Assembly (NCBI RefSeq): GCF_014280195.1
Contig: NZ_CP047960.1
Coordinates: 2,190,001 to 2,222,000 of the forward strand
Direction of reading: 5' to 3'
Origin: Synechococcus sp. A15-24
GTDB lineage: Bacteria > Cyanobacteriota > Cyanobacteriia > PCC-6307 > Cyanobiaceae
DNA length: 32,000 bases
Below are positions 7,021 to 30,507 of this stretch, in pieces; within the stretch, counting starts at the first letter, position 1; each line of letters begins with the position of its first letter. A model generated the notes under the pieces. The model made no database searches and was not told where the DNA came from. It saw only the letters and a list, made by a program, of their open reading frames with translations. Position numbers and translations under genes: made by a program.

Positions 7021-9290
<2,270 letters not shown>

Positions 9291-9449
9291 ACCATTACGC
9301 AACACCAAAACCACTCATACTCATGCAACTCTCAGGATCCATTCAGAGAGATTCATGAGAACACCCATCTTTGAAGACGCTATCATTCAAACGAACACTT
9401 TCCACAACTTTTCCAAAAAGGACCTTCAACGTAGTATTTCCGGCGACTA

Positions 9450-12950: not shown

Positions 12951-12953
12951 TCC

Positions 12954-13811
12954 ATGACTTCTGTAGCCGTTGTAGGGACAGGGCTCCTGGGTACTGCCAT
13001 CACCAAGCGACTATTAGAGAAGGGCTTTGAGGTTCATGTTTGGAATCGCAACCCCGCGCGTTTGGCAGATCTGCAAGAGCTTGGGGCGCACGCCATCCAA
13101 GAGCTGCACGGAGCTGCCCAAGGACGCCAAGCCGTCATCACCGTGTTGCGCGACGGAGCAGTTACAGCAAACGTGATCCATGCACTTGGGCCAATCCATG
13201 GCTCCACCGTGATGCCGATGGGAACCATGGGCATCACGGAAATCCGCAGCTTGGCTGAACAGGTTCAGCATCAGAACGGACACTGTTTGGAAGCGCCTGT
13301 GCTGGGCAGCAAACCTCAGGCCTTGAAAGGAGAACTGTTGGTGATGGCCGGTGGTGAGCCGGCGCTGTTTGACCAGCAGAGACCGCTCCTGGAGCATCTC
13401 TCACAAGAGCCAATGCTGGTGGGACCGATCGGCAGCGGTGCTGCCACCAAGCTTGCGCTCAATCAACTGATCGCCAGCCTTACCCACGCCTTTTCTCTGT
13501 CGCTGCGACTGGTGCAGCAGGCAGGCGTGCACGTTGAGACGTTCATGGCCATCCTGAGGCCCTCGGCGCTCTATGCCCCCACCTTCGATAAGAAGCTGCA
13601 GCGGATGCTGGAGGGTCACTATGACGACCCGAACTTCAGCACAGCCCTGCTGCGCAAGGACCTGCACCTGTTCCTGGAGGAGGCGACCGCTGCTGGACTC
13701 CAAATCCAAGGGCTGCAGGGTCTGGACGCCCTGCTGGAACAGTCATCCGGTAGCCAACTGGATGACCTCGACTATTGCGCCCTGCATGAGCTGACGCAAG
13801 AAAGTTTTTAA
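12954..13811 (+). CDS. NAD(P)-dependent oxidoreductase, 3-hydroxyisobutyrate/6-phosphogluconate dehydrogenase-like family
   Basis: 285-aa ORF. N-terminal Rossmann motif '[29 protein letters not shown]', then 'GTMG...LEAPVLGS...G.L.VMAGG' typical of the HIBADH-related family. It starts 3 nt after the stop of the giant ORF. Confidence 0.7.
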
Positions 13812-13818
13812 TGAGGTC

Positions 13819-14499
13819 ATGACCCAACGCACCTCCGTCGCGCTGCTGTCCGGCGGCCTGGATTCAGCCACGGCGGCGGCCATGGCCCTGGAGGAAGGTG
13901 ATCGTGTGATCGGCCTGTCCTTCGACTACGGCCAGCGTCACCGTCGCGAGCTGGAGGCTGCGGCTGCAGTTGCCTCGCACCTGGAGCTGGCGGAGCATCA
14001 CTGTCTTGCGGTCGATCTGGCGGCCTGGGGCGGATCCGCCCTCACCGACGACGCCATCACCATTCCCACCGATGGCGTCCAGGACGGCGTGATCCCACCC
14101 ACCTACGTCCCTGGTCGCAACACTGTGTTCATTGCAGTAGGACTGAGCCTTGCCGAGGCCCGTGGAGCCGAACGCTTGGTACTGGGGGTGAATGCCGTGG
14201 ACTATTCCGGCTATCCCGACTGCCGGCCCGATTATCTGAACGTCTTTCAGCAGCTGGCTAATCTAGCTAGCAAAGCTGGTCGCGAAGGCCATGGCACCCG
14301 GCTCTGTGCACCGCTGGTGGAGTGGAGCAAAACCAGAATTGTTGAGGAAGCACTCAGGCTCAACGTGCCGATCCAATCCACCTGGAGTTGCTACAGCGGT
14401 GGCTCGACCCCATGCGGAATCTGCGACAGCTGCCGCATCCGCGATGCCGCCCTGCGGGAAGCCGGTCGCCCGGACCTCTGCAGTAACGCGTCAACATGA
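13819..14499 (+). CDS. queC: 7-cyano-7-deazaguanine (preQ0) synthase
   Basis: PP-loop '[13 protein letters not shown]', 'FDYGQRH', and the C-terminal Zn-cysteine cluster '[18 protein letters not shown]'. Confidence 0.9.
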
Positions 14500-17457: not shown

Positions 17458-19181
17458 GCCTGAATCAGCCAATGCACGGCATAAGGTTCCAACTGAAGTT
17501 GCGAGCCATGGGTCTCGGAGGATCCGCTCAGACAATCGGCCCAGGCAAGACCAGTGCGACCGCCGAGACGCCCCAAGGCCAGGGTCAACCGCGAAGGGGT
17601 GACGTTATGAACCGCCACCAGGGTCTGACCGCCACCACTTCGACGCAGCATTACCAGATCGGTGCGTCCAGCACTCAACACCTCCATGGCCGCATCGGGA
17701 TGCAAGGCCGGCTGATCGCGGCGCACACGCAGGGCATGACCCAACACCGATGTAACGGCGGTGGCATCGCTGTCGGGATCCTGCAGCCGCCGCTCAACAG
17801 TGTCCGCCTTGAACTGCGGGCGGTTGAGATCCCTGCGCTGTCCGGTGCGGCGGAACCGGCCCAGGTCATTGGGTGTGGCCAACAGGGCCGGCAAATAAAA
17901 CGCCGGAACACCGGGCAGGGCCAGCATCAGCAGCTGGGTCATCAGAAAGCGTGCCCGTTGCAGATGGGCCGGGTCAATTCCGGCATCCGCCATGGCACTC
18001 CACCAGCTGATGTTGATCTCGTAAGGAGCCTCCTCACCGTTGGTGAGGCGACGGTGACTGATCAGACCACCCCGCTGCTCGCAGGCAATCAACAGCTGCA
18101 GTCTCCGCTGATCCGACATCAGCCCCTCGAGGGCCCGCAGACCGACACCGTCATGGCAAGCGGTGAAATTGAACAGCCCCGTGGCCTCCGGTAGCGCGGG
18201 CCAACGGTTGAGCCAGCCGTTCAGCAGATCAGCACGACCACTGATGGCCGCCTCCAGCAAGAGGGGCGGCAACGGGAAGTTGTAGGCCAGATGGGCCTCT
18301 CGACCGCTGACCAGATACGACAAGTTCTCCTGCTCCGGAACATTGGTCTCCGTCACCACCACCCCGCCTGAACAGCTGCGCTCCATCAGCTGCCGCAGCA
18401 CCTCAACGATGCGATGGGCTTCTGGCAGGTGGATGCAGCCTGTCCCCGGCGTCTTCCAGATGAACCCGACCGCATCCAGCCGGACCCAGCGGACCCCATG
18501 GCGAAGCATCTGGTCCATCAGCCGCGTGAATCCCAGCAGCACCTCCGGACTTCGCCAATCCACATCCACTTGGTCGGGCCCAAACGTGGTCCACACTTGA
18601 CGCGGACCATCCGACCCGCTCAGCTGGGTGAACAGAGAAGAACTCCGCGGCCGCACCACCTGGTCCCAGCAGGGATCAGGCGTCGCCTCCAGCACACAGG
18701 AGCGCCCCGGCTCCTCATCGCGCAGGAACTGCCTCACCCAGGGATGGGAGGCGGAGATGTGGTTCAGCACCAGGTCTGCCATCAGACGACGACCGTCAGC
18801 AAGGTCCGCCAGATCTCCCCAGTCACCGAAGCGCGGCTCGATCCGGTCGTGGCTGGCCACCGCAAAGCCGCCATCACTGGTGGAGGTCAGAAACGGCAGC
18901 ACATGCACCACCTCAGCGAAGGGCCGCAGGCGGTTGTTGAGTAGCTGACGCAGGCTGCGCAACGCGGGCACCCCATGCTCCACCACCGTATCGGCATAGG
19001 TGATCAGCACCGCATCGGCGCCTGTCCAGAGATCCGTCGCACCGGGCGGGTCGTCGTTTGCTGACGCACCACGCAAAATCTGCAGCAATTGCGACGACAG
19101 CTGCTCGGAATCAGCGGAAGAATCCTCGAGGTAGAGGTTCTCCAGCAGGCCCTGCAGCGTTTCAGCGCTCAAGGTCTGCAT
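17454..19181 (-). CDS. sucrose-phosphorylase-like glycoside hydrolase family 13 enzyme (GH13_18-like), candidate glucosylglycerate phosphorylase
   Basis: GH13 conserved regions 'DLVLNHIS', 'GVRWVRLDAVGFIWK' (nucleophile Asp), 'VVTETNVP' (acid/base Glu) and 'FTACHDGVGL'. The start is set at the ATG at 19181, which has AGGAGAG 6 nt upstream. The track start is 19199. Confidence 0.75.
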   Translation of the reverse strand: MQTLSAETLQGLLENLYLEDSSADSEQLSSQLLQILRGASANDDPPGATDLWTGADAVLITYADTVVEHGVPALRSLRQLLNNRLRPFAEVVHVLPFLTSTSDGGFAVASHDRIEPRFGDWGDLADLADGRRLMADLVLNHISASHPWVRQFLRDEEPGRSCVLEATPDPCWDQVVRPRSSSLFTQLSGSDGPRQVWTTFGPDQVDVDWRSPEVLLGFTRLMDQMLRHGVRWVRLDAVGFIWKTPGTGCIHLPEAHRIVEVLRQLMERSCSGGVVVTETNVPEQENLSYLVSGREAHLAYNFPLPPLLLEAAISGRADLLNGWLNRWPALPEATGLFNFTACHDGVGLRALEGLMSDQRRLQLLIACEQRGGLISHRRLTNGEEAPYEINISWWSAMADAGIDPAHLQRARFLMTQLLMLALPGVPAFYLPALLATPNDLGRFRRTGQRRDLNRPQFKADTVERRLQDPDSDATAVTSVLGHALRVRRDQPALHPDAAMEVLSAGRTDLVMLRRSGGGQTLVAVHNVTPSRLTLALGRLGGRTGLAWADCLSGSSETHGSQLQLEPYAVHWLIQA

Positions 19182-19250: not shown

Positions 19251-20528
19251 ATGGATTTTCAGCAGAGCCTGATCACCACGGTTCATGACTACAGCCTGGG
19301 CAACCTGGATGCTGTTGCCTTCAACCGCGAGCTGAGCCAGCGGCCGACGACGCTGCTGATCCCCTGTCTGATGGAGGAGTTCAGCCGTCCAGCACTGGCG
19401 CTGATCCGCGACACTCTGTCGTCATTGAAAGGCCTCAATCGCCTCGTCATTGCTCTGGCCGCTGAAAGCGCGGAGGACGTAGCCCATGCCGAAGCCTTCT
19501 TCGCCGGCATGCCCTTTCCCGTTCAGGTGCACTGGACCAATGGCCCAGCCGTGAAGGACTTGCTTGAGTCCATGGGCGCCCTGGGACTCGAGGTCACCGG
19601 TCCCCCCGGCAAGGGCTGGGCGGTCTGGCAAGGGCTTGGGGTGGCCTGTCAGGACGCCGAAGTGGTGGGCCTGTTTGACGCCGACATCCGCACCTTCGGC
19701 TCGGCATACCCGGAGCGGATGTTGCGTCCACTGCTGGATCGCTCCCACGGCATCGCCTACGTCAAGGCCTTCTACAGCCGGCTATCGCTGGAAACCCAGG
19801 CGCTGCAGGGTCGGGCCACCCGCCTGTTCGTCGGTCCTCTGCTGGTCAGCCTCGAACAGATCTTTGGCCCACTGCCGTACCTGCGCTATCTGCAGTCTTT
19901 TCGCTACCCCTTGGCTGGTGAATTCGCCTTCACCACCGATCTGGCGATGAATCTGCGCATCCCCTCCGATTGGGGCCTGGAGATGGGGTTGCTCTCGGAG
20001 GTATTCCGTCATGTCGCCACCAGTCGCATTGCCCAGGTGGATCTGGGGCTGTTTGATCACAAGCACAAAGGACTCGGAAGCAAACCCAGTGAGGGGTTGC
20101 AACGCATGGCCGGTGAAATCTTCGGAACCGTTTTGCGCAGCTTGATGGAGCACGAGGGCGCCGTGATCTCGATGGATCAGATTCCCACCCTTGAGGTGCT
20201 CTACCGACGCGTCGGTGAGGATCGGGTGCGCCAATTCGGCATTGATTCGGCGATCAACCGGCTCCCCTATAACCGCCATGGAGAAGAACTGGCTGTGCAC
20301 AGTTTTGCTGAACTGCTGCGGCCAGGACTCTCCCGCCTAATGGAGTCTCCAGTTGCTCATCAGCTCCCCAGTTGGTCACGACTGAAAAGCTGCAATCCTT
20401 CACTTCAAGGCGACCTAAGTGCAGCAGGTCAAATGGATCGCACTACATCTCGAACATTGCCCCAGTCTCAACCATTGCGTCGACCCAATCACAAACCCAG
20501 ATCATCAACATCTGAGCTTGTTGCCTGA
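19251..20528 (+). CDS. gpgS: glucosyl-3-phosphoglycerate synthase (retaining glycosyltransferase)
   Basis: 'FQQSLITTVHDY' N-terminus, 'LLIPCLMEE', the DxD-type 'GLFDADIR', and 'YPLAGEFAFT...DWGLEMGLL' typical of glucosyl/mannosyl-3-phosphoglycerate synthases. The start could instead be the ATG at 19209. The track start at 19089 overlaps the divergent gene. Confidence 0.7.
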   Translation: MDFQQSLITTVHDYSLGNLDAVAFNRELSQRPTTLLIPCLMEEFSRPALALIRDTLSSLKGLNRLVIALAAESAEDVAHAEAFFAGMPFPVQVHWTNGPAVKDLLESMGALGLEVTGPPGKGWAVWQGLGVACQDAEVVGLFDADIRTFGSAYPERMLRPLLDRSHGIAYVKAFYSRLSLETQALQGRATRLFVGPLLVSLEQIFGPLPYLRYLQSFRYPLAGEFAFTTDLAMNLRIPSDWGLEMGLLSEVFRHVATSRIAQVDLGLFDHKHKGLGSKPSEGLQRMAGEIFGTVLRSLMEHEGAVISMDQIPTLEVLYRRVGEDRVRQFGIDSAINRLPYNRHGEELAVHSFAELLRPGLSRLMESPVAHQLPSWSRLKSCNPSLQGDLSAAGQMDRTTSRTLPQSQPLRRPNHKPRSSTSELVA

Positions 20529-20556
20529 ACGGACTTGAATCAAATGTAAACGAGTC

Positions 20557-20600
20557 AAATTGGCCCCAATCGTCAGATTGGAGCCAATTTCTATTCGTTT
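20557..20600 (+). terminator. putative intrinsic terminator between convergent gpgS and the small minus-strand ORF
   Basis: AAATTGGCcCC (20557-20567) pairs with GGaGCCAATTT (20580-20590), giving 8+2 bp with one mismatch and a 12-nt loop. It is followed by TTTCTATTCGTTT. The same DNA also reads as two ATTGG-N2-CCAAT palindromes 18 bp apart. Confidence 0.4.
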
Positions 20601-20619
20601 AGACAAATCCCAAGACGCA

Positions 20620-20799
20620 TCAAAGAGCCTGCTGCTGCCGCATTACCCATTGCGTAGCAGCGCGCTGGGATTGCCAGGCATGGAGAAGTTGCTTGGCAAG
20701 CGTCTGCAACTGCGCTGGGTCAGCAGTGGCTTCAATGGCACGGTTCATCCGCTCCACTTCAAAGCATTGCGTCGTGGACATTGCAATCGATTCCCTCAT
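20620..20799 (-). CDS. 59-aa two-helix protein, NblA-like (phycobilisome degradation protein-like) by pattern
   Basis: The ATG at 20799 is preceded by GGAG with a 6-nt spacer (TTGGAGTAAGTGATG). 'FEVERMNRAIEATADPAQLQTLAKQLLHAWQSQRAATQWVMRQ' follows the size and heptad-like pattern of NblA (F..x..F/M...Q/I....(E/A)Q.Q.L...L...). Confidence 0.45.
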   Translation of the reverse strand: MRESIAMSTTQCFEVERMNRAIEATADPAQLQTLAKQLLHAWQSQRAATQWVMRQQQAL

Positions 20800-21065
20800 C
20801 ACTTACTCCAATTGAAGACTTCACTATTTTCATGCCACCACGAAAAAGAATTGTTTCATTTGAAACGAAACATCCACACTGTGTGAACTTTCAGACTTAC
20901 GTACTGATCAACCCACACTCCGCAACCAAAAAGAGCCGCGCCATCATCAAAAAGTCGCTAAAGCTACCAAACCAACTGCATCTGTATCACGGGGTCTAAA
21001 CGAAATCTGAAAGCATTTCCAATTCGTGCCCAATCCAACACTCCACTGGCGCAGAGTTCTGCAAA

Positions 21066-21338
21066 GTGGCATCATTCTGGGATTCAGACATGATTGAGTG
21101 CGTCTACCGCAACGACACTGACCGAATGGTGATTGTTAAATGTGTCGGGGATGACCGCTTTTACCGTGAAAAGGTTGTGCTTCCCACTGAGATGTTCTGG
21201 TTTGAAGCCCCTGAACAGGCGCGGCTTGAAATCTGGAAAATGTCGGTGAGCGGTCAGATGCTGCACGTACGCGCCGATGTGAGCGAGTACGCCATGAATC
21301 AAGACGAGGCGGCCACCGAAACAGTCTGGGCCTGCTAA
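21066..21338 (+). CDS. DUF1830-like conserved cyanobacterial small protein
   Basis: 'IECVYRNDTDRMVIVKCVGDDRFYREKVVLPTEMFWFEAPEQARLEIW' resembles the DUF1830 signature (C.Y.N......I......YFERVV.P......FEAP..A.LEI). The track start at 21066 is GTG. An alternative ATG lies at 21090. Confidence 0.6.
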   Translation: MASFWDSDMIECVYRNDTDRMVIVKCVGDDRFYREKVVLPTEMFWFEAPEQARLEIWKMSVSGQMLHVRADVSEYAMNQDEAATETVWAC

Positions 21339-21368
21339 ACCGCTCCAGCCCCAGGACCTCAAGGAGGG

Positions 21369-21635
21369 CTAGCGGCCAATCAGATCGACTCCGAGCAGCT
21401 CAGCAGTCATCCTTGAGCGCAGAAAGCCCCCGGGACGGAGGGTCTTCGCCTTTGCCGCAGATGCTCCAGCCTCAAATGCATGCCGTTGATCATCTTGCAC
21501 ATCGTCGGAGAGGCTAAGAAGCTCAGCAGTTTTCTTGGAACGGATGATCTGGCAACTTGCCGTCTTCCGCCCGGAAGGCCGGTAGAGCAGTTGAGACGTT
21601 TGAATAATCGAGCGTTGAGATTGAAGTTTGGACAT
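21369..21635 (-). CDS. hypothetical 88-aa protein with an internal duplicated motif
   Basis: The ATG at 21635 is preceded by GGAGAGGA. The motif (I/F)(I/L)RS(K/R)xTAELL(S/G)(L/V) occurs twice ('IIRSKKTAELLSL' and 'FLRSRMTAELLGV'). The longer track versions (to 21776) add an implausible N-terminus. Confidence 0.35.
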   Translation of the reverse strand: MSKLQSQRSIIQTSQLLYRPSGRKTASCQIIRSKKTAELLSLSDDVQDDQRHAFEAGASAAKAKTLRPGGFLRSRMTAELLGVDLIGR

Positions 21636-21863
21636 TCGTCCTCTCCGAGATGAACAGGTCCCCGTTCCTTGACCTGAGAACCACTGCGCCCTGAACCAGG
21701 GTGAACGGCTGGTATTGGTTGATACAGATAAATCATGACAAGCCAATGGATACAGATGTCGTTCGTGTCGAAACAAAATGGCAAACGGTTAATATTCTTC
21801 ACAAAGGTCTGCCCCAGCAAAGTAGAAGGTGCCCATGTACGGCATGTCCCTGCCCGAAAGCAA

Positions 21864-22343
21864 TTGAAGAATTTCTTACCAATTGGAGCGATAGCCTGCC
21901 TACTCTCCGTGACAACGACAGCAATTCAAGGGTGCTACCAGCAAGCCAAGGAAACTCCCAGTCATGAAGCTCAACCCGGCGACACGCTTGTGGTGAAGGG
22001 AGGTGCAGAGATACGCCTGACCCACACCTTCAAACCAGGAGAACCCAATGGACTCTTCGATGGAGGAATCAGGGTCACAACGGATCAATCCGTGACGAGC
22101 ACTGCAGAGGTGAATGCGGTCTGCAGCATGCCTGATCTGCCGAACTGGCCTCAGTACGACAACATTTATGGACGTTGGTTAACGGACGGCGAAACGCCTG
22201 GTGTCGAGGGAGGAAAAACGGACTGGCAACTGTTGCTCTATTTCAATGGCCAGACCGAGGAGAAGGGCCGCGAACCAGCTCCTGCATGGGCCCAACGCCT
22301 CGCGCAAAACCTTTGTCGAAAAGGAGATTTCCTAGACGACTGA
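21864..22343 (+). CDS. putative lipoprotein (159 aa if TTG start)
   Basis: Within the 21735-22343 ORF, 'KNFLPIGAIACLLSVTTTAIQGC' is a signal peptide ending in a lipobox-like IQGC. The in-frame TTG at 21864 would place it at the N-terminus. The ATG at 21735 would leave 43 aa in front of it. Confidence 0.45.
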   Translation: MKNFLPIGAIACLLSVTTTAIQGCYQQAKETPSHEAQPGDTLVVKGGAEIRLTHTFKPGEPNGLFDGGIRVTTDQSVTSTAEVNAVCSMPDLPNWPQYDNIYGRWLTDGETPGVEGGKTDWQLLLYFNGQTEEKGREPAPAWAQRLAQNLCRKGDFLDD

Positions 22344-22471
22344 GCTACCTAGGGAGGCCAAGCATCTCCGTAATGGCCAACGGTCGCCCAACAAAATGAC
22401 ACAACAGTGGCAATTGATACGGCCAGGCTCTCCTCGAGACCTGACTATGGGAATGGTTCTCATTCTCGCCA

Positions 22472-22774
22472 ATGGCTAGTACCGGCAGTGTCAGTTCCTG
22501 GGACGAGTCTGTGCTCGTCGCAATGATTCAATATCCCGTGCCTGTGATCACAGGTCCAGCCGATATCCATACACAAGTCGACCAGATTTGCAAAGCCGTA
22601 GCGTCAACAAAAGCTGGATATCCGGAAGCAGACATAATTGTGATGCCTGAGTACTCAACTCAAGGTTTAAACACAGCCATTTGGACCTATGCCACAGAAC
22701 AGAGTGACAAATTCGATCCCAGCAACAGCAACAGCCTGACAAAGTTTGCTGCCGCAAGTTTGCTCTCTGCATGA
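22472..22774 (+). pseudogene. truncated remnant of a nitrilase-superfamily aliphatic amidase/formamidase (AmiE/AmiF type)
   Basis: The first ~70 codons, 'VLVAMIQYPVPVI...DQICKAVASTKAGYPEADIIVMPEYSTQGLNTAIW', match the N-terminus of AmiF/AmiE-type enzymes as I recall them (...AAIQFPVP...ATKAGYPG..LI.FPEYSTQGLNTAKW), including the catalytic Glu. Full-length enzymes are ~335-345 aa. The frame here degenerates after ~22685 and stops at 22774 inside a palindrome. The Lys and Cys of the triad are missing. Confidence 0.6.
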
Positions 22775-22786
22775 GAGCAAACTTGC
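22754..22786. repeat. perfect 14-bp inverted repeat with 5-nt loop
   Basis: GCAAGTTTGCTCTC-tgcat-GAGAGCAAACTTGC. The 9-mer AAGTTTGCT also occurs directly upstream (22742-22750). The pseudogene stop codon lies in the loop/stem. Confidence 0.9.
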
Positions 22787-22883
22787 GACGAATTAAGATT
22801 TTTTTATCATACTGTAGGATTAAAAAAAGTATCACATAAAACAAAGTTTTAGTATCAAAACAGTGCAATTTTTAATTGCGTAT

Positions 22884-22906
22884 AAAGGGCCACATCTTGG
22901 CCCTTT
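22884..22906 (+). terminator. GC-rich hairpin in the fmdA upstream region (terminator-like or 5'-leader structure)
   Basis: AAAGGGCCA-catct-TGGCCCTTT (9-bp stem) followed by CGTTGTGTCTTT, ~40 nt upstream of the fmdA ATG. The T-tract is interrupted, so terminator function is uncertain. Confidence 0.35.
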
Positions 22907-22947
22907 CGTTGTGTCTTTAATAAAACAGTGTTAGCTTCTTGCTATCA

Positions 22948-24153
22948 ATGCCCGAAACGCTTTTCAAAGTTGATCTCACCAAGTCGATGGATCAGCAGGA
23001 TATGCCTGGACATAACCGTTGGCATCCAGATATTCCTGCAGTCGCATCAGTTAATCCAGGCGATGTCTTTCGAATTGAGTGCAAAGACTGGACAGATGGA
23101 CAGATTAAAGACAACGACAATCCCCAAGATATTGCTGATGTGAATCTCGAGGTTGTTCACGTTCTAAGTGGTCCAATTTGGGTCAATGGAGCTCAGCCAG
23201 GAGATATTTTGGTTGTTGATATCCTCGAGGTAGGAGCACTTCAAGGTGATGAGTGGGGTTTTACTGGAATCTTTGCCAAAGAAAACGGTGGAGGATTTCT
23301 GACCGATCATTTTCCAAAAGCAGCAAAAGCAATCTGGGATTTGGAAGGAGTTTTTACGTCCTCTCGCCACATTCCCGGAGTTCGTTTCGCTGGCATCACC
23401 CATCCAGGCCTGATCGGTTGCGCTCCCTCCATAGATCTGCTCCAGGAATGGAACCGTCGAGAAACAGAGTTGGTTCAGACTGCACCAGACCGCAGAACCT
23501 ATGGCGCAGGACTTTCTGGAACGGAACCGGTTCTGGCAGCTTTGCCGAACCCAAACAGCGCCATTCTTGGGAACGTCGCTGCTGGAGATTTTGAGAGAAT
23601 TGCTAACGAAGCAGCTCGGACTGTTCCTCCACGGGAACATGGAGGAAACTGCGACATTAAAAATCTCACAAAAGGAACACGGATCTATTTCCCTGTGTAC
23701 GTAGAGGGTGCAAAGCTCTCCATGGGTGACATTCACTTTTCTCAGGGTGATGGGGAAATTTCATTCTGTGGTGCTATCGAGATGTCTGGATATCTCGATC
23801 TTCATGTTGAGCTGATCAAAGGAGGGATGGCTAAATATGGCATGGTCAATCCAATGTTCAAGACCAGTCCTGTTGAGCCTCATTACTCTGATTATCTAGT
23901 CTTTGAGGGCATCTCTGTCGATGAATTTGAAGGGAAACAATATTATATGGATGTGCATATCGCTTATCGCAGAGCCTGCCTAAATGCAATTGAATACTTG
24001 AAAAAATTTGGTTATACAGGAGAACAGGCCTATCTCTTGCTGAGCTGCGCTCCGGTTGAAGGCAGGATCAGTGGAATTGTCGACATTCCAAATGCGTGCT
24101 GCACCCTTGCCATACCAACTTCCATATTTGACAAAGATATTCTCCCCTGCTAA
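22948..24153 (+). CDS. fmdA: formamidase (acetamidase/formamidase family, FmdA type)
   Basis: 401-aa ORF from the ATG at 22948. 'HNRWHPDIP', 'PGD.F..EC.DWTDGQI.D', 'H.LSGPI.V.GA.PGD.L.V.I', 'REHGGNCDIKNL..G..IYFPV' and 'GDIHFSQGDGE' are hallmark FmdA/AmdA motifs. The size matches ~400-410-aa formamidases. Confidence 0.85.
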   Translation: MPETLFKVDLTKSMDQQDMPGHNRWHPDIPAVASVNPGDVFRIECKDWTDGQIKDNDNPQDIADVNLEVVHVLSGPIWVNGAQPGDILVVDILEVGALQGDEWGFTGIFAKENGGGFLTDHFPKAAKAIWDLEGVFTSSRHIPGVRFAGITHPGLIGCAPSIDLLQEWNRRETELVQTAPDRRTYGAGLSGTEPVLAALPNPNSAILGNVAAGDFERIANEAARTVPPREHGGNCDIKNLTKGTRIYFPVYVEGAKLSMGDIHFSQGDGEISFCGAIEMSGYLDLHVELIKGGMAKYGMVNPMFKTSPVEPHYSDYLVFEGISVDEFEGKQYYMDVHIAYRRACLNAIEYLKKFGYTGEQAYLLLSCAPVEGRISGIVDIPNACCTLAIPTSIFDKDILPC

Positions 24154-24187
24154 GCACTTACTTCTACCATTATTTATCGATTTTCAC

Positions 24188-24472
24188 ATGCCAGTCTACG
24201 AATATTCCTGCCAATCTAGTGAATGCCTCACCTATGAAGTATGGCGATCAATTGATCAACGTTCTGTTCAAACAGAATGCCCTACTTGTGGAAGAGAAGG
24301 CAAGAGGATTTTCAATCCACCCATGGTGTTATCCTCATCTATTCGCTCGAAAATCGAAGTTAAGGAACCAAAACTTGTGAGCAAAAAAAATTCAATATAT
24401 GCGACTGAGGCTTCAAAGCCTCGATTACGCACAAACGATTCACGTCCTTGGATGTTGAATCGAGGTTGCTAA
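24188..24472 (+). CDS. fmdB: FmdB-family zinc-ribbon putative regulatory protein
   Basis: 'MPVYEYSC....C...EVW.S........CP.CG......F' matches the N-terminal FmdB/CxxC_CxxC_SSSS zinc-ribbon pattern. The tail is Ser/Lys-rich and ends in GC. I chose the ATG at 24188 because the track start at 24056 lies inside fmdA. Confidence 0.7.
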   Translation: MPVYEYSCQSSECLTYEVWRSIDQRSVQTECPTCGREGKRIFNPPMVLSSSIRSKIEVKEPKLVSKKNSIYATEASKPRLRTNDSRPWMLNRGC

Positions 24473-24495
24473 GAAAAGACTATCAAAATCAAAAC

Positions 24496-24535
24496 AAATG
24501 GGGTGTGATTAAAAATCACACCCCATTTTTATTCT
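24496..24535. terminator. bidirectional intrinsic terminator between convergent fmdB and urtE
   Basis: AAATGGGGTGTGATT-aaa-AATCACACCCCATTT (about a 15-bp stem) is followed by TTTTATT on the plus strand and by TTTGTTTTGATTTTG on the minus strand. Confidence 0.8.
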
Positions 24536-24537
24536 GA

Positions 24538-25284
24538 TTAAACTGTCAGGAATTCTTCAATCACATGATCTGATAATTGTGAGGTTGGACCACTCGATAC
24601 AATACCACCTCGTTGCATCGCATAATAGAAATTAGACTGCTTCACAAAATGAAGGTGTTGCTCAACCAGAAGAACACTAATGCCTGTTTCTTTAATGATC
24701 CGTTTGACAGCACGTTCAATGTCGAGAATAATCGATGGCTGGATCCCTTCGGTTGGCTCATCTAACAAAAGAAGCTTGGGCTTGCCAAGAAGTGCACGTG
24801 CAATCGCAAGTTGTTGCTGCTGACCTCCACTGAGGTCACCTCCACGTCGATTCAGAAACTGTTCAAGAATAGGAAACAATTCAAAAACAATGGGATCAAT
24901 ATGACGATTTCGCCCCATCCCCCCAGACAATGATTCCATTCCGATCAAAAGATTCTCTCGAACTGTAATTCGAGGAATAATATCTCGGCCTTGGGAAACA
25001 TAACCAATTCCTCCCCTTGCTCGTTTATAAGGAGGCTGGTTAGTTAACATTTTTCCGTCATATTCAATCGAACCAGATCGTTGCTCGAGAAGACCAATGA
25101 TCGTCTTTAGAAAGGTTGTCTTTCCCACTCCATTACGACCGATCAAACAAATCATTTCCCCCTCAGGGATATGCAGATCAACATTTCTGAGAATGTGACT
25201 CTCGCCATAATAGACATTCAAGCCATTTGCTCGAAGAACTGTTTTTGCTGAGGTTGGATGTGTGGTGGTTGTCGTTTGTACCAT
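24538..25284 (-). CDS. urtE: urea (short-chain amide) ABC transporter ATP-binding protein UrtE
   Basis: Walker A 'GRNGVGKTT', ABC signature 'LSGGQQQQL', Walker B 'LLLLDEP'. Branched-chain/urea (LivF-like) type, last gene of the urtABCDE order. Confidence 0.85.
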   Translation of the reverse strand: MVQTTTTTHPTSAKTVLRANGLNVYYGESHILRNVDLHIPEGEMICLIGRNGVGKTTFLKTIIGLLEQRSGSIEYDGKMLTNQPPYKRARGGIGYVSQGRDIIPRITVRENLLIGMESLSGGMGRNRHIDPIVFELFPILEQFLNRRGGDLSGGQQQQLAIARALLGKPKLLLLDEPTEGIQPSIILDIERAVKRIIKETGISVLLVEQHLHFVKQSNFYYAMQRGGIVSSGPTSQLSDHVIEEFLTV

Positions 25285-25316
25285 GATCTTTAAAGGGATT
25301 AGTGAATAAAAAGATA

Positions 25317-26060
25317 CTATTCAGATTGACCGAGATAAACCTCAATCACTTTTGGATCAGACTTTACCTCATCAAGTGAACCTTCCGTCAACAACTGCCC
25401 TTGATGCAACACAGTGACTGGTGCGGCAAGATCACGAATAAACTCCATATCATGCTCAATTACCACCACGGTATGTTCACCTGCAAGGGATTTAATCAGT
25501 TCAGCTGTTTTGTTCGTCTCGTCATCGGTCAAGCCTGCCACTGGCTCGTCCAGAAGAATGATATCTGGAGATTGAGCAACAAGCATTGAAATCGCAAGCC
25601 ATTGTTTTTGGCCGTGAGACAAAGAACCGGCCAAGACCTTTGCATAAGGAGCAAGGCCCACATAATCCATCAAGCGATAGACCTCATCTTTAGCCGTGTT
25701 ATTGAGTTTTTCAAACATAAGACTGAATGGCATCTTGCTCGGTGAAGCAGCCAACTCAAGATTTCTAGAGACCGAAAGATTTTCAAACACGCGAGGTGTC
25801 TGAAACTTACGACCAACACCTAGTCTTGAAATCTTCTGTTCCGAAAAACCAATAATGCTGGAACCTCGCAGGGAGACTGAGCCTTTGGTTGGCTTAACCT
25901 TTCCAGTGATGACATCTAGAAAAGTTGTTTTACCAGCGCCATTGGGTCCAATGATTGATCTTAACTCACCATGCTCTAGTGAGATGGAAAGATCAGTCAA
26001 TGCGAAGAAACCATCAAAATCAACGCTGACATCGTTCAATTCAAGAATTGGTGTTGACAT
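25317..26060 (-). CDS. urtD: urea ABC transporter ATP-binding protein UrtD
   Basis: Walker A 'GPNGAGKTT', signature 'LSHGQKQWL', Walker B 'IILLDEPVAG'. LivG-like, fourth gene of the operon. Confidence 0.85.
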   Translation of the reverse strand: MSTPILELNDVSVDFDGFFALTDLSISLEHGELRSIIGPNGAGKTTFLDVITGKVKPTKGSVSLRGSSIIGFSEQKISRLGVGRKFQTPRVFENLSVSRNLELAASPSKMPFSLMFEKLNNTAKDEVYRLMDYVGLAPYAKVLAGSLSHGQKQWLAISMLVAQSPDIILLDEPVAGLTDDETNKTAELIKSLAGEHTVVVIEHDMEFIRDLAAPVTVLHQGQLLTEGSLDEVKSDPKVIEVYLGQSE

Positions 26061-26110
26061 TGCTTAAACAGTGTTGGTTGACATGAAGAAGAAGGTTGTT
26101 TAAAAGCAAA

Positions 26111-27232
26111 CTATTGTGATTCAACTGTGTAACTTTTATCTATTTCTAATTTTGGATAAGTCGAAGATTTTTTGGCAATTCCAAAGGCTGCCAACATCGA
26201 AGTAAATCCACCATTCTTGAACCATCCATAAATACCATCCGGCATCAACACAACCACGAAGATAAACAGACCACCCTGCACAAACAACCAGGCTTCTGGT
26301 AGTGCTTCACTGACAAGGCTTCGTAAGTAGTTCACCAAAACGGCGCCTATAATCGGTCCGATCAATGTTCCACGACCACCAACGGCGACCCAAATCACCA
26401 TTTCAATAGACATTGAAATGGCCATGTACTGAGGTGAAACGATACCTGACTGAACTGTATAAAGTGCACCTGAAATGCCAGCCAAGCCACCAGCAACTAA
26501 AAAGACGATCACTTTAAAAGGAACCGGATTAAACCCACTGAAACGGAGTCGTGCTTCATCATCTCTGATCCCGATCAAAGCATCACCAAAACGACCACTC
26601 GTTAAAAACTTACATAAGAGATAGGCAAAAGGGAGAATTATAAGTGTAATCCGATAGAACATAATCTGAGCATCATCGGAGCCCACGATCATTCCGAAGA
26701 TCTCCGTTGTGCTCGTCTTAAGGCCATTCGTTCCATTAACAAGCTTCTGCTGACCATTGAAAAAATGGTAAAAAACCATCAAAGAAGCCTGAGTAATAAT
26801 AGAAAAATAAACACCCTTGATTCTGTTTCTAAAAATCAAATATCCGACAAGGCCAGCAACCACAGCAGGAATTAACCATATAGCAATCAATGTCCAAGGG
26901 AATGACCAGAATGGTTGCCAGAAAAACGGAAGGTTATCAACACCATAATTCTCAAAGAACTTAGGCAGACCATTAGCACCAGTGGTGAAATCATTGTTAG
27001 TCACCAAGAGAAGATGCATGGCTATGGCATAACCACCCAAGGCAAAGAAGATACCTTGACCAAGACTTAGGAGTCCGGTATATCCCCAGATCAGGTCGAT
27101 ACCTAAAGCAATGATAGCTAAAGAAAAATACCTACCGAAAAGGTTAAGGCGGAACTGTGAAAGAATCGCTGGTAGGACAAAGAATGCGAAGGCGAGAAGA
27201 AGCCAGGGAATCAGCTTTTTGAAAATTTTCAT
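26111..27232 (-). CDS. urtC: urea ABC transporter permease UrtC
   Basis: 373-aa polytopic membrane protein of the LivM-like family ('LSLGQGIFFALGGY', 'GGRGTLIGPIIGA'). Confidence 0.8.
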   Translation of the reverse strand: MKIFKKLIPWLLLAFAFFVLPAILSQFRLNLFGRYFSLAIIALGIDLIWGYTGLLSLGQGIFFALGGYAIAMHLLLVTNNDFTTGANGLPKFFENYGVDNLPFFWQPFWSFPWTLIAIWLIPAVVAGLVGYLIFRNRIKGVYFSIITQASLMVFYHFFNGQQKLVNGTNGLKTSTTEIFGMIVGSDDAQIMFYRITLIILPFAYLLCKFLTSGRFGDALIGIRDDEARLRFSGFNPVPFKVIVFLVAGGLAGISGALYTVQSGIVSPQYMAISMSIEMVIWVAVGGRGTLIGPIIGAVLVNYLRSLVSEALPEAWLFVQGGLFIFVVVLMPDGIYGWFKNGGFTSMLAAFGIAKKSSTYPKLEIDKSYTVESQ

Positions 27233-27249
27233 GGTAAAAACAGTAGTAA

Positions 27250-28407
27250 TCAGGATTCGACAGATCGTCCCTTTTGAGGGAACATCCCAGTAGGTTTAAA
27301 TTGAAGGAACGTAATAATAAAGATAAATATCAGCACATATGACATACTTGTTGTGGCAAAGAACTCAATCACAGCAGCAGGACCAGCCGGTATATTGTCG
27401 AAAGCAATTAAGATGGCACCAGATCCAATGATGGATTGAATGATGCCAAGCATCATCGAAGCAATCACAGTACCAACAAGATTTCCAACTCCCCCTAGAA
27501 CAATAACCATAAAGCAAGAAACGATATAGGCCGCTCCAAGATTGGGTCCTACAGAGCCAAGCAGAGTGATCGCACTACCAGCAACACCAGCTAAGCCTGA
27601 TCCAATCCCGAAGGTGATGCTGTCGACACTATCAGTGGGAATACCCAAGCAATTGCTCATCTGGCGATTTTGAGTGACAGCACGGATACGTAAACCCCAA
27701 ACACTCTTTGTGAGGAACCATGCCACAAACGCAAGCAGCAGAGCCGAAAGGATAATGATAAAAATTCGAATACCTGGCAACTCAATCCCCGCAATGGAAC
27801 CCCAGCTTCCTTGCAACCATTTCGGAGCTGTCACGTCAATATTGCGAGGTCCAAACCAAGCTTTAGAGAGCATCTTAGAAGCTGTCATCGCATTAATTGA
27901 AATAAATCCAATCGCTGATGCCACAACCCAAGCAAAACCTGATAAATAAGGGTAGAAATTAGCACTTTTAAGCTTTGCTGGTGAAAATCGTTGAGAGAAA
28001 TAACCTAGCAATATCGCAATTAATATACCTAAAACCATACTTGTTGAAACACTGCGTATAAATTGAATCAGCACAAGGCTGACACCCCAAGTAGCAAGCA
28101 ATGTCTCAAGCGGTCGGCCATATAATTGCCGTATTAATGTTCTTTCCAGAAGAATGCCGACAATTCCAGTAATGACAAAGGCAAAAAATAATGCGAAAAA
28201 ATAATAGAGTTGGAAAACACCTTCGCCAAGAGGCTTGAACATGTTTTGAGTGACAAAAGTCACGTAAGCTCCAACCATCATCAACTCGCCATGAGCGAGA
28301 TTGATTACCCCCATCAAACCAAAAACGATGGCAAGGCCAGTAGCCGCAAGAAGCAAAACTGACCCAATGCTGAGCCCATCAAGGAGCTGTGAAAAAATTA
28401 ATTCCAT
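27250..28407 (-). CDS. urtB: urea ABC transporter permease UrtB
   Basis: LivH-like polytopic permease ('GVINLAHGELMMVGAY', 'LGGVGNLVGT'). I chose the ATG at 28407 (MELIFSQLLDGLS...). The track start at 28437 is a TTG inside the urtA terminator hairpin. Confidence 0.8.
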   Translation of the reverse strand: MELIFSQLLDGLSIGSVLLLAATGLAIVFGLMGVINLAHGELMMVGAYVTFVTQNMFKPLGEGVFQLYYFFALFFAFVITGIVGILLERTLIRQLYGRPLETLLATWGVSLVLIQFIRSVSTSMVLGILIAILLGYFSQRFSPAKLKSANFYPYLSGFAWVVASAIGFISINAMTASKMLSKAWFGPRNIDVTAPKWLQGSWGSIAGIELPGIRIFIIILSALLLAFVAWFLTKSVWGLRIRAVTQNRQMSNCLGIPTDSVDSITFGIGSGLAGVAGSAITLLGSVGPNLGAAYIVSCFMVIVLGGVGNLVGTVIASMMLGIIQSIIGSGAILIAFDNIPAGPAAVIEFFATTSMSYVLIFIFIITFLQFKPTGMFPQKGRSVES

Positions 28408-28420
28408 CAGTACATGGGGT

Positions 28421-28451
28421 AAAAAAAAGGGCCACAAGTTTATTGTGGCCC
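28421..28451 (-). terminator. intrinsic terminator/attenuator between urtA and urtB
   Basis: On the minus strand, GGGCCACAA-taaac-TTGTGGCCC (9-bp GC-rich stem) is followed immediately by T8 (plus-strand A-run 28421-28428). It lies 29 nt after the urtA stop and 14 nt before the urtB ATG. Confidence 0.75.
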
Positions 28452-28479
28452 ACTATTCAAAGAAATTCAGAAGTAACGA

Positions 28480-29787
28480 TTACATCTTGAACTTTCCGGC
28501 ATCAGCACGATCAAGGGTCCAGTCGCACTTGTAGCCTTTGGTCTCAGGAACGTACTGGTTCCAAGTGATAGGAGGAACAGGGGTCTTGCTGTCCCAGAGA
28601 ATCTCAAACTGACCATCCTCCTTAGCCTCACCAATCCGCACAGTCTGTGAGATGTGGTGATTGGGATACATCTCAATCGGACCCTGAGGAGCATCGAGCT
28701 TAATTCCGATCAGTGCATCCCGGACAGCATCCAGATCTTCATAAGTGCCAGCCTTCTCAACAGCAGCCTTCCAGAGGTAAACCATGTTGTAAGCCGACTC
28801 CATCGGATCGTTCGTCACACGATCATCACCGTACTCAGCAAGGAATGCTGAATTGAAGGTATCGGAGGCCGAGGTTCCGAGGGACATGAAATAGTTCCAG
28901 GCCGCATAAGTGCCGCCCACATACTCAGGTCCGATCTGACGGATCTCCTCCTCAGCGATGGAGAAGGACATGATCGGATACTTTTCCGGAGTAATTCCTG
29001 CTGCCTTGAACTGCTTGAACAGGGCAACGTTGGAATCACCGTTCAGAGTGTTGATGATGATTCCACCATCAGGGAACTCCTTCTTGATCTTGGCGATGAT
29101 AGGTGCCACCTCAGTGTTGCCCAGAGGGATGTAGTCCTCACCGACTGTCTCACCACCCAGGCTCTTGACCTGCTCTTTGATGATGGTGTTAGCAGTTCTG
29201 GGGTAGACGTAGTCAGAACCAACCAAATAAACCTTCTTGCCGTACTTGTCGGCGAACTGCTCAAACAGCCAGTCAACAGCGGGCTCAGCCTGCTGGTTAG
29301 GGACAGCGCCGGTGTAGAAGATGTTCTTGGAGCACTCCTGACCTTCGTACTGAATTGGGTAGAAGAGGAAGTGATCCTTGGCTTCGTAAACCGGAAGCAT
29401 TGCCTTCCGACTTGCGGATGTCCAGCCGCCAAACACAACGGCAACCTTATCGGCGTCGATCAGCTTCTGTGACTTCTCCGCGAAGGTAGGCCAATCTGAA
29501 GCACCATCTTCAGAGGTGTAGGTGATCTTGTAGCTCTTGCCATCGATTTTGACGCCACCGTCGGCATTGATTTCCTTGATCGCCATCTCCTCGACTTCTT
29601 TTAGAGTCGTTTCGGAGATCGCCATCGTTCCGCTAAGGGAATGAAGGATGCCAACTTTGATTTCACCATCAAAATCTGCACCACCACCAGCGGAATCACC
29701 ACTGTCTCCGCCACAGGCGGTCATTGTGACTCCCACTGTTGTGGCAGCGAAAGCAGCTAGCAGACGCTTCGTAAACGTTGAATTCAT
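28480..29787 (-). CDS. urtA: urea/short-chain amide ABC transporter substrate-binding lipoprotein UrtA
   Basis: 'KVGILHSLSGTMAISE..L.....MA..EINA.GGV', 'VFGGWTSASRKA' and 'YP.QYEGQE' are typical of UrtA/FmdD-type binding proteins. The signal peptide has 'VTMTAC' followed by a Gly/Ser/Asp linker. The ATG at 29787 is preferred over the track GTG at 29799. Confidence 0.88.
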   Translation of the reverse strand: MNSTFTKRLLAAFAATTVGVTMTACGGDSGDSAGGGADFDGEIKVGILHSLSGTMAISETTLKEVEEMAIKEINADGGVKIDGKSYKITYTSEDGASDWPTFAEKSQKLIDADKVAVVFGGWTSASRKAMLPVYEAKDHFLFYPIQYEGQECSKNIFYTGAVPNQQAEPAVDWLFEQFADKYGKKVYLVGSDYVYPRTANTIIKEQVKSLGGETVGEDYIPLGNTEVAPIIAKIKKEFPDGGIIINTLNGDSNVALFKQFKAAGITPEKYPIMSFSIAEEEIRQIGPEYVGGTYAAWNYFMSLGTSASDTFNSAFLAEYGDDRVTNDPMESAYNMVYLWKAAVEKAGTYEDLDAVRDALIGIKLDAPQGPIEMYPNHHISQTVRIGEAKEDGQFEILWDSKTPVPPITWNQYVPETKGYKCDWTLDRADAGKFKM

Positions 29788-29834
29788 GAAGAAAGACACA
29801 CGGTGGATGAGACCGCCATGAGGGCGACAATAGA

Positions 29835-29876
29835 ACCGTATGAACCGTCCAAGACCCGATTTGTATCGACTACGAC
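29835..29876 (-). promoter_or_regulatory. candidate NtcA-activated promoter of urtA
   Basis: The minus strand reads GTCgtagtcgaTAC (29876-29863), one mismatch from GTA-N8-TAC. After exactly 22 nt comes TACGGT (29840-29835), which fits the TAN3T -10 consensus. That hexamer lies ~48 nt upstream of the urtA ATG. Confidence 0.5.
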
Positions 29877-29904
29877 ATTTTGAGAATTGCCGCGATTCGT
29901 TGAC

Positions 29905-30507
29905 TTAATTCGGTAGCTGTTGCAACACAAATGCCTCCACTTCCTTCAATCCTTCGCCGCTCTGGAGATTAGTGAAACACCAGGGACGCTCGCCCCGCAT
30001 TCGCTGAGTGTCCGCCTCCATCACCGAGAGGTCGGCACCCACTAGGGGTGCCAGGTCGATCTTGTTGATCACCAGCAGATCGGATCGGGTGATGCCAGGC
30101 CCTCCCTTGCGGGGAATCTTGTCCCCAGCGGCGACATCGATCACATAAATGCAGAGGTCCACCAACTCCGGACTGAAGCTGGCAGCCAAGTTGTCGCCAC
30201 CGCTTTCCACCATCACAAGATCCAGATCCGGAAACTGTTTCTCCAAATCGGCCACAGCCGCCCGGTTGATGGAACAGTCCTCACGGATCGCCGTATGCGG
30301 ACAGCCGCCCGTTTCCACGCCGCGGATCCGTTCCGGCTCAAGGGCGCCAGCGCGCGTCAAAAATTGCGCATCTTCCTGGGTGTAGATGTCGTTGGTGACA
30401 ACAGCCAGCTCAAGCTGACCGCGCAGTCTGTGGCAAAGCGCCTCCACCAACGCAGTTTTGCCGGAACCGACCGGACCGGCCACCCCAAGACGCAACTTGC
30501 TGCTCAT
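29905..30507 (-). CDS. ureG: urease accessory GTPase UreG
   Basis: '[16 protein letters not shown]' P-loop, '[13 protein letters not shown]' and 'ESGGDNL' motifs. Confidence 0.95.

Follow-up and report, generated by a model that had tools for sequence, protein, structure and literature searches.

The stretch of DNA considered here, referred to as the window, comprises 32,000 nucleotides from the cyanobacterium Synechococcus sp. A15-24 (NCBI RefSeq assembly GCF_014280195.1, contig NZ_CP047960.1, positions 2,190,001 to 2,222,000 of the forward strand), and the positions given below are counted from its first letter. Between about 20.4 and 29.9 kb the window carries a block of GC-poor DNA that holds the genes of a UrtABCDE urea importer, the formamidase gene fmdA and its neighbor fmdB, the remnant of an amidase gene and several small open reading frames (ORFs), and that is followed by the urease genes from ureG onwards (Table 1). 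The block is an ancestral organic-nitrogen scavenging locus of the cluster-5 picocyanobacteria, which lies beside the urease genes in this clade III marine Synechococcus. An earlier note on this DNA, made from the letters alone, had named urtABCDE, fmdAB and the amidase remnant, and these names are upheld by NCBIfam and Pfam. The UrtABCDE set is complete, all five components scoring above their NCBIfam equivalog cut-offs, and FmdA likewise exceeds the cut-off of its equivalog, with the FmdB zinc-ribbon gene next to it.

Table 1. Features of the GC-poor block and its edges (positions in the window; scores in bits, with the cut-off of the model where one applies)
Feature	Position	Strand	Basis and remarks
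gpgS 3' end (glucosyl-3-phosphoglycerate synthase)	20290..20528	+	NCBIfam; holds the left low-GC edge
Small DUF1830 gene	21066..21338	+	Pfam PF08865, 80 bits; same place in A15-28 and metagenome contigs
Small ORF (~88 aa) behind the riboswitch	~21369-21635	-	88-aa gene called there in A15-28
Glutamine-II riboswitch (downstream-peptide motif)	21653..21710	-	Rfam RF01704, 49.9 bits (gathering score 33)
Conserved ORF (179-202 aa in relatives)	21735..22343	+	Orthologues called in L082-L088; upstream of the amidase, same strand
Amidase remnant (CN-hydrolase, formamidase/aliphatic amidase type)	22472..22774	+	NCBIfam NF009803, residues 1-74 only
fmdA, formamidase	22948..24153	+	NF045496, 667 bits (cut-off 500)
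fmdB-type zinc-ribbon protein	24188..24472	+	TIGR02605, 37.9 (cut-off 31.3); PF09723
Hairpin between convergent fmdB and urtE	24491..24533		20-nt arms, 90% complementary; 3-nt loop
urtE, ATP-binding subunit	24538..25284	-	TIGR03410, 314 bits (cut-off 286)
urtD, ATP-binding subunit	25317..26060	-	TIGR03411, 359 bits (cut-off 304)
urtC, permease	26111..27232	-	TIGR03408, 440 bits (cut-off 296)
urtB, permease	27250..28407	-	TIGR03409, 346 bits (cut-off 250); 385-aa gene called in A15-28
urtA, periplasmic urea-binding protein	28480..29787	-	TIGR03407, 589 bits (cut-off 493)
Candidate NtcA box upstream of urtA	29863..29876	-	GTC-N8-TAC, one mismatch to consensus, weak; read from the sequence
ureG, first native-GC gene of the right flank	29905..30507	-	TIGR00101, 330 bits; GC3 0.69

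Outside its two low-GC stretches (the block and positions 9100-13850) the window has a GC content of 0.632, with a standard deviation (sd) of 0.026 over 34 one-kb windows, and from 20.4 to 29.9 kb the mean is 0.464 (minimum 0.409), which is 6.4 sd under the outside windows (19 one-kb windows). The third codon positions carry most of the drop. Their GC content (GC3) is 0.34 in urtE, 0.40 in urtD, 0.41 in urtC, 0.38 in urtB, 0.41 in fmdA and ~0.37 in fmdB, as compared to 0.67-0.84 in the flank genes, and urtA, which had been described earlier as intermediate, indeed lies between the core of the block and the flanks at 0.60 (T and A at third positions, T3 and A3, being 29% and 11%). Three tiers of GC can be recognized along the block, at ~0.50-0.53 (20.4-22.9 kb), 0.41-0.47 (22.9-28.45 kb) and ~0.52 (urtA); the intergenic spacers of the core have a GC of 0.25-0.39, versus 0.56-0.58 in three flank spacers, and the tetranucleotide correlation (r) is 0.58-0.69 between block and flanks and 0.81-0.89 among the flanks. 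The left edge falls within gpgS, the final ~80 codons of which have a GC3 of 0.36-0.38 versus 0.68-0.85 upstream, a dip that is also seen in A15-28 and MIT S9507 and is weaker in others, and the right edge falls in the interval between urtA and ureG at ~29.8-29.9 kb. A low-GC block reaching from the gpgS tail to just before ureG, as the earlier note had it, is thus confirmed by the profiles of one-kb GC, GC3 and tetranucleotides.

Gene order and base composition in related genomes

Relatives were gathered by a UrtC scan with one genome per species and the best 80 loci; the 88 loci that were fetched (cited where necessary by number, e.g., L004) and the window make 89 sequences, and clade labels are those of A15-28, KORDI-49 and UW179A only. 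The finished chromosome of Synechococcus sp. A15-28 (CP047931.1), which is given as subcluster 5.1, clade IIIb, GC 60.1% and GC3 70.75% in the PMC7522525 supplement, is 96.9% identical to the window across 15.3-32 kb, has the identical arrangement from gpgS to ureE at 99-100%, and encodes the window's UrtD protein unchanged. Metagenome contigs from five independent assemblies (L082, L085-L088) cross one or both junctions of the block at 97-99.5% identity: L082 spans both and L085-L088 span the right one, with L087 reaching the final 270 bp of gpgS and L088 ending ~20 bp inside the left low-GC edge. An assembly or binning chimera, i.e., a low-GC block of another organism wrongly joined to Synechococcus flanks, had been allowed for at the outset, and block-only contigs do exist whose ends coincide with the block edges (L001, 9478 bp) and which have been binned into non-cyanobacterial metagenome-assembled genomes (MAGs). 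But the junctions are reproduced in the finished A15-28 chromosome and in five separate metagenome assemblies, and the same gene order occurs in >70 other genomes, so that a chimera is excluded for all practical purposes.

The order fmdA-fmdB-urtE-D-C-B-A-ureG-F-E is kept in marine Synechococcus and in freshwater Cyanobium and Vulcanococcus, and in the marine lineages pabC is separated from fmdA by the glucosylglycerate genes (gpgP, GH13, gpgS) and by several small ones. FmdA is found in the same position, with 89-97% amino-acid identity to the protein of the window, in 77 loci. The ureG gene is present in 77 of the 89 sequences (match over at least 80% of the query) and stands beside urtA in every locus checked. 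The earlier note was therefore right to regard the adjacency of ure and urt as ordinary, and its further proposal, that the formamidase genes had been acquired together with urt, does not hold for a gene order that has been kept from marine to freshwater genomes.

In each of the 79 loci with enough data the GC3 of urtBCDE is under that of the flanks, by a minimum of 4, a median of 22 and a maximum of 42 points; it is larger than 10 points in 56 loci, larger than 20 in 44, and amounts to 35 points in the window. The dip is largest in the marine lineages, where the GC3 of urtBCDE is 29-53 irrespective of a flank GC3 of 50-78, and the hosts with the lowest GC dip too (from a flank GC3 of 50 to 39 in L007 and from 56 to 33 in L011). 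How deep the dip is in freshwater lineages depends on the clade, and their Urt trees largely match those of the flanks: of 18 strongly supported splits, 10 occur in both and 3 are in conflict. UrtBCDE hardly differ in amino-acid composition between genomes with an urt GC3 of 30 and of 87 (Phe, Tyr, Met, Ile, Asn and Lys together, or FYMINK, 25.7-29.0%), and the difference in GC between lineages is therefore almost purely synonymous. Between the window and L004, L013 and L015 the synonymous sites of the block are saturated (proportion of synonymous differences, pS, 0.76-0.83), and the saturated alleles on both sides still have a GC3 of ~0.3-0.4 inside flanks of 0.6-0.75. By the argument from amelioration, and provided that the usual pressures of the host act on this DNA, saturation without loss of a supposed donor signature points to low GC as a maintained state of the locus. 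We conclude that the low GC is a long-standing property of the locus across the group and not a recent foreign trace.

In the account that goes back to the earlier note, the urt genes of this particular genome would recently have been replaced by xenologous ones, fmdAB would have come with them, and the low GC would be the unameliorated signature of the donor. The abrupt change in composition at the two edges, of which the left one is inside gpgS, the incongruence between the urt tree and the flanks that is documented in the next section, and the occurrence of the nearest cross-lineage alleles in genomes of lower GC (flank GC3 62 in L004 and 50 in L007) all lend themselves to such an account. 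Opposed to it are the dip and gene order of all 79 loci, including L004 (23 points) and L007 (12 points) themselves, the syntenic and well-conserved fmdA throughout, the saturation of the window alleles relative to L004 (pS ~0.8), and the lack of any sequence labelled Prochlorococcus in the best 120 UrtC matches for each of the two allele classes, which extend down to 74-77% identity. A genome-specific import is contradicted by the same direction of the GC3 gap in 79 of 79 related loci, and a donor signature by lowest-GC relatives that dip as well (flank GC3 50-56 versus urt 33-39) and by saturated alleles that have stayed low; we now consider this account very improbable.

Prochlorococcus was rejected as a donor on the strength of its absence from the same two sets of best 120 matches, and the flanks of every sampled genome are richer in GC than its own urt genes, so that an obvious low-GC donor is missing. 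One could also imagine that a low-GC reservoir outside the sample, such as a picocyanobacterial lineage, a phage or another vehicle, seeded the locus repeatedly into many lineages and always at one homologous site. The marine urtBCDE genes, whose GC3 of 29-53 is lower than that of the flanks of every sampled host and does not track the host, would be explained in this way, and exchanged DNA is typically AT-rich. Such a reservoir is, however, not represented among the best 80 species-representative loci or the best 120 protein matches of either class, the freshwater dips are inherited with the lineage, and mobile-element features are lacking, all of which makes repeated seeding distinctly unlikely in our judgment.

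Discordant trees and the exchange of alleles

Trees were constructed by neighbor-joining with simple distance corrections, and their support values are bipartition bootstrap frequencies; the left-flank set consisted of GpgS and GH13 and the right-flank set of UreABCDEFG, "core" in this context meaning the flanking genes only. The UrtBCDE trees conflict with the left-flank and right-flank trees at 98-100% bootstrap support. The UrtBCDE splits in question unite A15-28, L083, L004 and L007 (99-100%), L013, L014 and L015 (100%), L011, L012 and L013 (100%), and L005, L006, L008 and L010 (98-99%), whereas A15-28 and L083 are joined with L013 and L014 in the left-flank tree (100%) and L006 with L011 and L022 in the right-flank tree (100%). 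All of the conflicting splits stay, at 95-100%, under Dayhoff-6 recoding, and FYMINK lies within 25.7-29.0% in all taxa; a compositional artefact of the trees was rejected on these two grounds. The discordance can also be seen in pairwise identities, which are 96% for UreABC and 82% for UrtBCDE between A15-28 and L013, and 84% and 89%, respectively, between L006 and L008.

Two classes of marine UrtBCDE can be told apart. Class G1 contains the window, A15-28, L083, MIT S1220, NAT70, MIT S9503/9507, CUG2217 and TMED19 as well as, judged by UrtC, KORDI-49 and the CRD1 strain UW179A, and class G2 contains the AG-67x single-amplified genomes (SAGs), CUG2171 and L015. The UrtC protein of the window is 94% identical to that of MIT S1220 and 84% identical to those of the SAGs that are closest to it by flanks, and the whole segment from fmdB to urtA groups with the MIT S1220/NAT70 alleles, while the flanks group with other lineages. 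At the nucleotide level the best match is to L004/L007 from ~24.0 kb (fmdB) to ~29.85 kb (the 5' end of urtA), and to L015/L012-14 from ureG on. In urtA the identity to L004 is 82-89% and the best match holds to ~29.85 kb, where it switches; on its right side the exchanged segment thus ends where the composition changes. Conflicts also exist within the classes, since L006 and L011 are deep by their flanks and nested by Urt; the sorting of two old classes is for this reason insufficient by itself, and at least three exchanges would appear to be needed.

From the tree conflicts, together with the switch of best match at the right edge, it follows that urt alleles have been replaced in place, by homologous recombination, in this ancestry. 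The replacement in place that the earlier note suspected is accordingly supported by conflict at 98-100% with both flanks and by match switches at ~24.0 and 29.85 kb; what falls away is its restriction to this genome and the import of low GC, because L004 and L007 show dips of their own and the synonymous sites are saturated, so that no donor composition can be recognized. Of the two signs by which the same note would have known an ancestral, lineage-wide feature, low GC in all close relatives was found and congruence of the Urt trees was not. The locus combines a fixed position, a deviant composition and a phylogeny decoupled from that of the flanking genes, i.e., the marks of an exchangeable region situated in the core.

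More recent gene flow is evident from synonymous divergence (dS, by Nei-Gojobori counting). In comparison with L084, which represents another clade III population, dS is 0.34-0.48 in pabC, gpgP, GH13 and gpgS and 0.018-0.052 from fmdA to urtA, so that within clade III the block lies ~10-fold under the left flank; in the right flank, as compared with L087, dS is 0.11 in ureG and 0.08 in ureF. Relative to L083/L002 the dS of the block is 0.4-0.9 and that of the flanks 0.9-1.6, and within the block urtD has a dS of 0.12-0.23 versus 0.6-0.9 in the neighboring genes (95-97% nucleotide identity versus ~86%), which marks it as a gene-sized mosaic tract inside the operon; the index of the assembly collection lists the identical UrtD protein for 119 blocks, whereas exact look-ups of the UrtC and PyrG proteins of the window gave no entry. 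The opposite pattern is seen between L005 and L008, for which pS is 0.32-0.55 in the flanks and 0.64-0.75 in urt/ureDEFG, and the locus is thus now more and now less similar than its surroundings, as allele exchange predicts. Synonymous constraint was rejected as the source of the similarity within clade III, since more distant comparisons find these sites saturated. Between the window and A15-28 there is a step at ~18.8 kb (18750-18850, inside the GH13 gene), to the left of which the two are 10-16% divergent and to the right ~0-1% divergent for at least 13 kb, and this is a sharp recombination breakpoint.

It might be held that descent has been purely vertical, with the locus kept AT-rich by selection (e.g., for nitrogen thrift) and the tree conflicts arising from incomplete lineage sorting or rate artefacts. 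The dip is universal, independent of the host in marine lineages and clade-specific in freshwater lineages with mostly congruent trees, the Urt and Fmd proteins are poor in nitrogen and their third positions rich in U, and incomplete lineage sorting has been proposed for the rod region of the phycobilisome in these organisms (PMC8995045). Vertical descent is hard to reconcile, however, with L006 and L011, which are deep by flanks yet nest at 98-100% beside L005/8/10 and L012-14, respectively, which two-class sorting does not predict, and recombination is directly indicated by the drop in dS that is confined to the block within clade III and by the urtD tract. We therefore think it unlikely as the entire explanation.

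Possible causes of the low GC and parallels in known systems

The spacers and the gpgS tail are AT-rich along with the genes, which favors a regional cause of the low GC. In favor of nitrogen thrift, there are 0.19-0.29 side-chain nitrogen atoms per residue in UrtA-D and FmdA versus 0.33-0.49 in the flank proteins, Lys stands in place of Arg in UrtA (Lys 7.6%, Arg 1.8%), third positions are U-rich, with a T3 of 38-41%, and the marine lineages have the largest dip. An amino-acid bias of membrane proteins was also considered and was rejected, given that the cytoplasmic ATPases UrtD and UrtE and FmdA share the low GC3, that the spacers are AT-rich, and that high-GC freshwater orthologues have nearly the same amino-acid composition. 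A possible explanation, which we put forward tentatively and regard as more doubtful than probable, is that urt and fmd are held at a low-GC, U-rich and nitrogen-poor equilibrium by selection on a nitrogen-starvation regulon, which would be strongest in nitrogen-poor oceans and relaxed in many freshwater Cyanobium, with favored alleles spreading between clades by homologous recombination. If this is true, the block would be a case of compositional adaptation within a genome and on the scale of an operon, and not the footprint of a foreign origin. Frequently exchanged DNA is generally AT-rich, which provides a further candidate cause.

Nitrogen cost minimisation in the proteins and transcripts of nutrient assimilation has reportedly been described by Baudouin-Cornu (2001), Gilbert and Fagan (2011), Grzymski and Dussaq (2012) and Read (2017). 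The few nitrogen-rich side chains of Urt and Fmd and the U-rich third positions are like what is described there. That literature deals with proteomes and whole genomes, unlike the dip of 20-40 GC3 points in a single operon, and urtA and the ure and gpg genes misfit a simple idea of nitrogen cost scaled by expression.

The best explanation for the entire set of observations, to which we give a probability of about 0.6, is a locus-specific mutation-selection balance combined with recurrent exchange in place. The locus would bring together a small gene under the control of a glutamine riboswitch, an amidase that is dead in this strain, FmdA/FmdB and the UrtABCDE importer; going by family membership, UrtA would bind urea in the periplasm, UrtB and UrtC would form the channel and UrtD and UrtE would supply ATP, after which urease and formamidase would release ammonium. 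Alleles of fmdB-urtEDCBA may have been replaced repeatedly in place by homologous recombination among marine Synechococcus lineages, probably anchored in the highly conserved fmdA on one side and in urtA/ureG on the other. In this ancestry the allele class of MIT S1220, NAT70, CRD1-type strains and KORDI-49 would have come to lie between flanks whose closest relatives hold the other class, and more recently one version of the block may have spread among clade III sublineages. The low GC would most likely be kept up by the mutation-selection balance of the locus, for which nitrogen thrift in the nitrogen-starvation regulon and/or the AT-richness of exchanged DNA are the candidates.

Several points weigh against this explanation. 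Nitrogen thrift fits poorly with urtA, which has the smallest dip and reportedly the highest expression in the operon, with the dip-free ure and gpg genes, and with UrtE, which is not nitrogen-poor. The lineage relationships are drawn from the two flanks alone and not from whole genomes, and the flanks may recombine too, as the ~18.8-kb divergence step relative to A15-28 illustrates. The trees are neighbor-joining trees with simple distance corrections, the urt genes of Prochlorococcus lie outside the sample, which leaves room for a low-GC reservoir, and the anchoring by fmdA and urtA is something that we infer.

Among known systems, the phycobilisome rod gene region of marine Synechococcus, reportedly described by Six in 2007, comes closest; it shares with the urt locus a fixed position, a conserved function, a deviant composition, incongruent trees and independence from classical mobility genes. 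For that region the fixed position, the deviant tetranucleotides and GC and the incongruence with core trees are on record (Dufresne 2008, PMC2441476), and it is also the subject of Grebert 2022 (PMC8995045). The two differ in that the rod region consists of light-harvesting genes and the urt locus of genes for nitrogen uptake, and in that the urt locus varies between genomes in its alleles alone, its set of genes being constant. Nothing like the pigment types is known by which the two classes of urt alleles would differ in phenotype. Classical genomic islands and the tycheposons of picocyanobacteria, which Coleman (2006) and Hackl (2023) are said to have described, are like the urt block in their lower GC, deviant oligonucleotide usage and role in nutrient acquisition; they differ from genome to genome in whether they occur and in what they hold, and tRNA genes and integrases are often found next to them, whereas the urt block is found in nearly all relatives, in the same place, and without these.

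Of the marks of a horizontally acquired genomic island (islands are defined in PMC2441476), the block has the deviant composition (6.4 sd in GC, a 35-point gap in GC3, and tetranucleotides) and lacks variable presence or content, as only the amidase and small ORFs vary. It also lacks a mobility signature, i.e., a tRNA target, an integrase or transposase, or flanking direct repeats: ARAGORN finds 0 tRNA genes in the window, the small ORFs have no Pfam match to an integrase or transposase, and a search for repeats flanking the block gave only short matches at chance level, all of which agrees with what the earlier note had reported. UrtABCDE with adjacent urease genes is known from Anabaena, Synechocystis, Synechococcus and Prochlorococcus (PMC6737895, PMC10119275); ureA-G/urtB-E has been termed a quasi-core region with scarce lateral transfer between ecotypes (PMC10119275), and horizontal gene transfer has been argued to be unlikely for cyanobacterial urea genes (PMC6737895). 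The locus has the same five genes by ureGFED/ABC as these systems, with no functional difference, and its compositional and phylogenetic behavior goes unmentioned in PMC6737895 and PMC10119275. UrtABCDE systems take up urea with high affinity and are induced through NtcA when nitrogen is limiting; elements of a regulatory kind in the block include the weak one-mismatch NtcA-like box before urtA and the Glutamine-II riboswitch. In the literature searched, Synechococcus urt genes were nowhere described as low in GC or as exchanged laterally.

These observations bear on practice, as urtA and the genes around it commonly serve to trace nitrogen stress in the ocean, in metagenomes as well as in proteomes. 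If urt alleles move between Synechococcus clades, reads from the locus cannot be assigned to a clade by similarity, and because the locus lies 15-20 GC points below the genome, binning by composition parts it from its host. It also offers a clean natural case for asking why core loci can stay AT-rich for very long (through gene flow, biased gene conversion or nutrient thrift), and would be a second exchangeable region of fixed position in marine Synechococcus, beside the phycobilisome rod region.

A number of public records show unexpected labels. The block-only contig L003 belongs to a MAG labelled Deltaproteobacteria and L001 and L002 to "uncultured bacterium" MAGs, and near-identical UrtC proteins (P0001, P0073, P0125) are filed under MAGs labelled Deltaproteobacteria, Planctomycetaceae and Opitutales. 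Probably the deviant composition breaks the assembly or the binning of Synechococcus genomes at the block. Several whole Cyanobium MAG records also carry unrelated names (Chitinophaga, Rhizobium, Tabrizicola).

Small genes and other elements of the window

The Glutamine-II riboswitch scores above the Rfam gathering threshold and has a small ORF downstream, and it is found at the same relative position in seven marine loci (L004, L005, L006, L007, L008, L013, L015). In four of these (L005, L008, L013, L015) a second Glutamine-II riboswitch is located past ureC, by which the ure-urt-fmd supercluster is bracketed with glutamine-sensing elements. The interval that separates the riboswitch from the divergent conserved ORF, the first gene of the amidase-fmdAB row, contains an exact NtcA-type GTA-N8-TAC box, GTATTGGTTGATAC, at 21712-21725. 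It is the sole exact match in the window, where ~1 is expected by chance, and was for that reason rejected as a signal. The conserved ORF itself has no family match in NCBIfam or Pfam. The hairpin between fmdB and urtE, with its long arms and short loop between convergent genes, is probably a two-way terminator.

The amidase was truncated by a 769-bp deletion between two 7-bp GGACCTA microhomologies (window position 22689; L084 6505-7274). An intact gene of 348 aa is present in L083, L084, L087 and L088, and intact and deleted versions coexist in ocean metagenomes.

Matches to the Rfam model "5_ureB_sRNA" (134-160 bits) were obtained within the ureB/ureC coding region of L005, L006, L008, L013 and L015; they most likely reflect similarity of coding sequence to a Helicobacter model and not a small RNA.

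The second low-GC stretch of the window, at 9100-13850, has a GC of 0.48-0.55. It encodes a secreted-type protein of 1166 aa with subtilase S8, PPC and W_rich_C domains (GC3 0.53) and a HIBADH-like dehydrogenase. These genes sit between queE and queC, which are adjacent to each other in TMED19 and in freshwater relatives, and of the two low-GC stretches it is this one that has more of the look of a true lineage-specific insertion.

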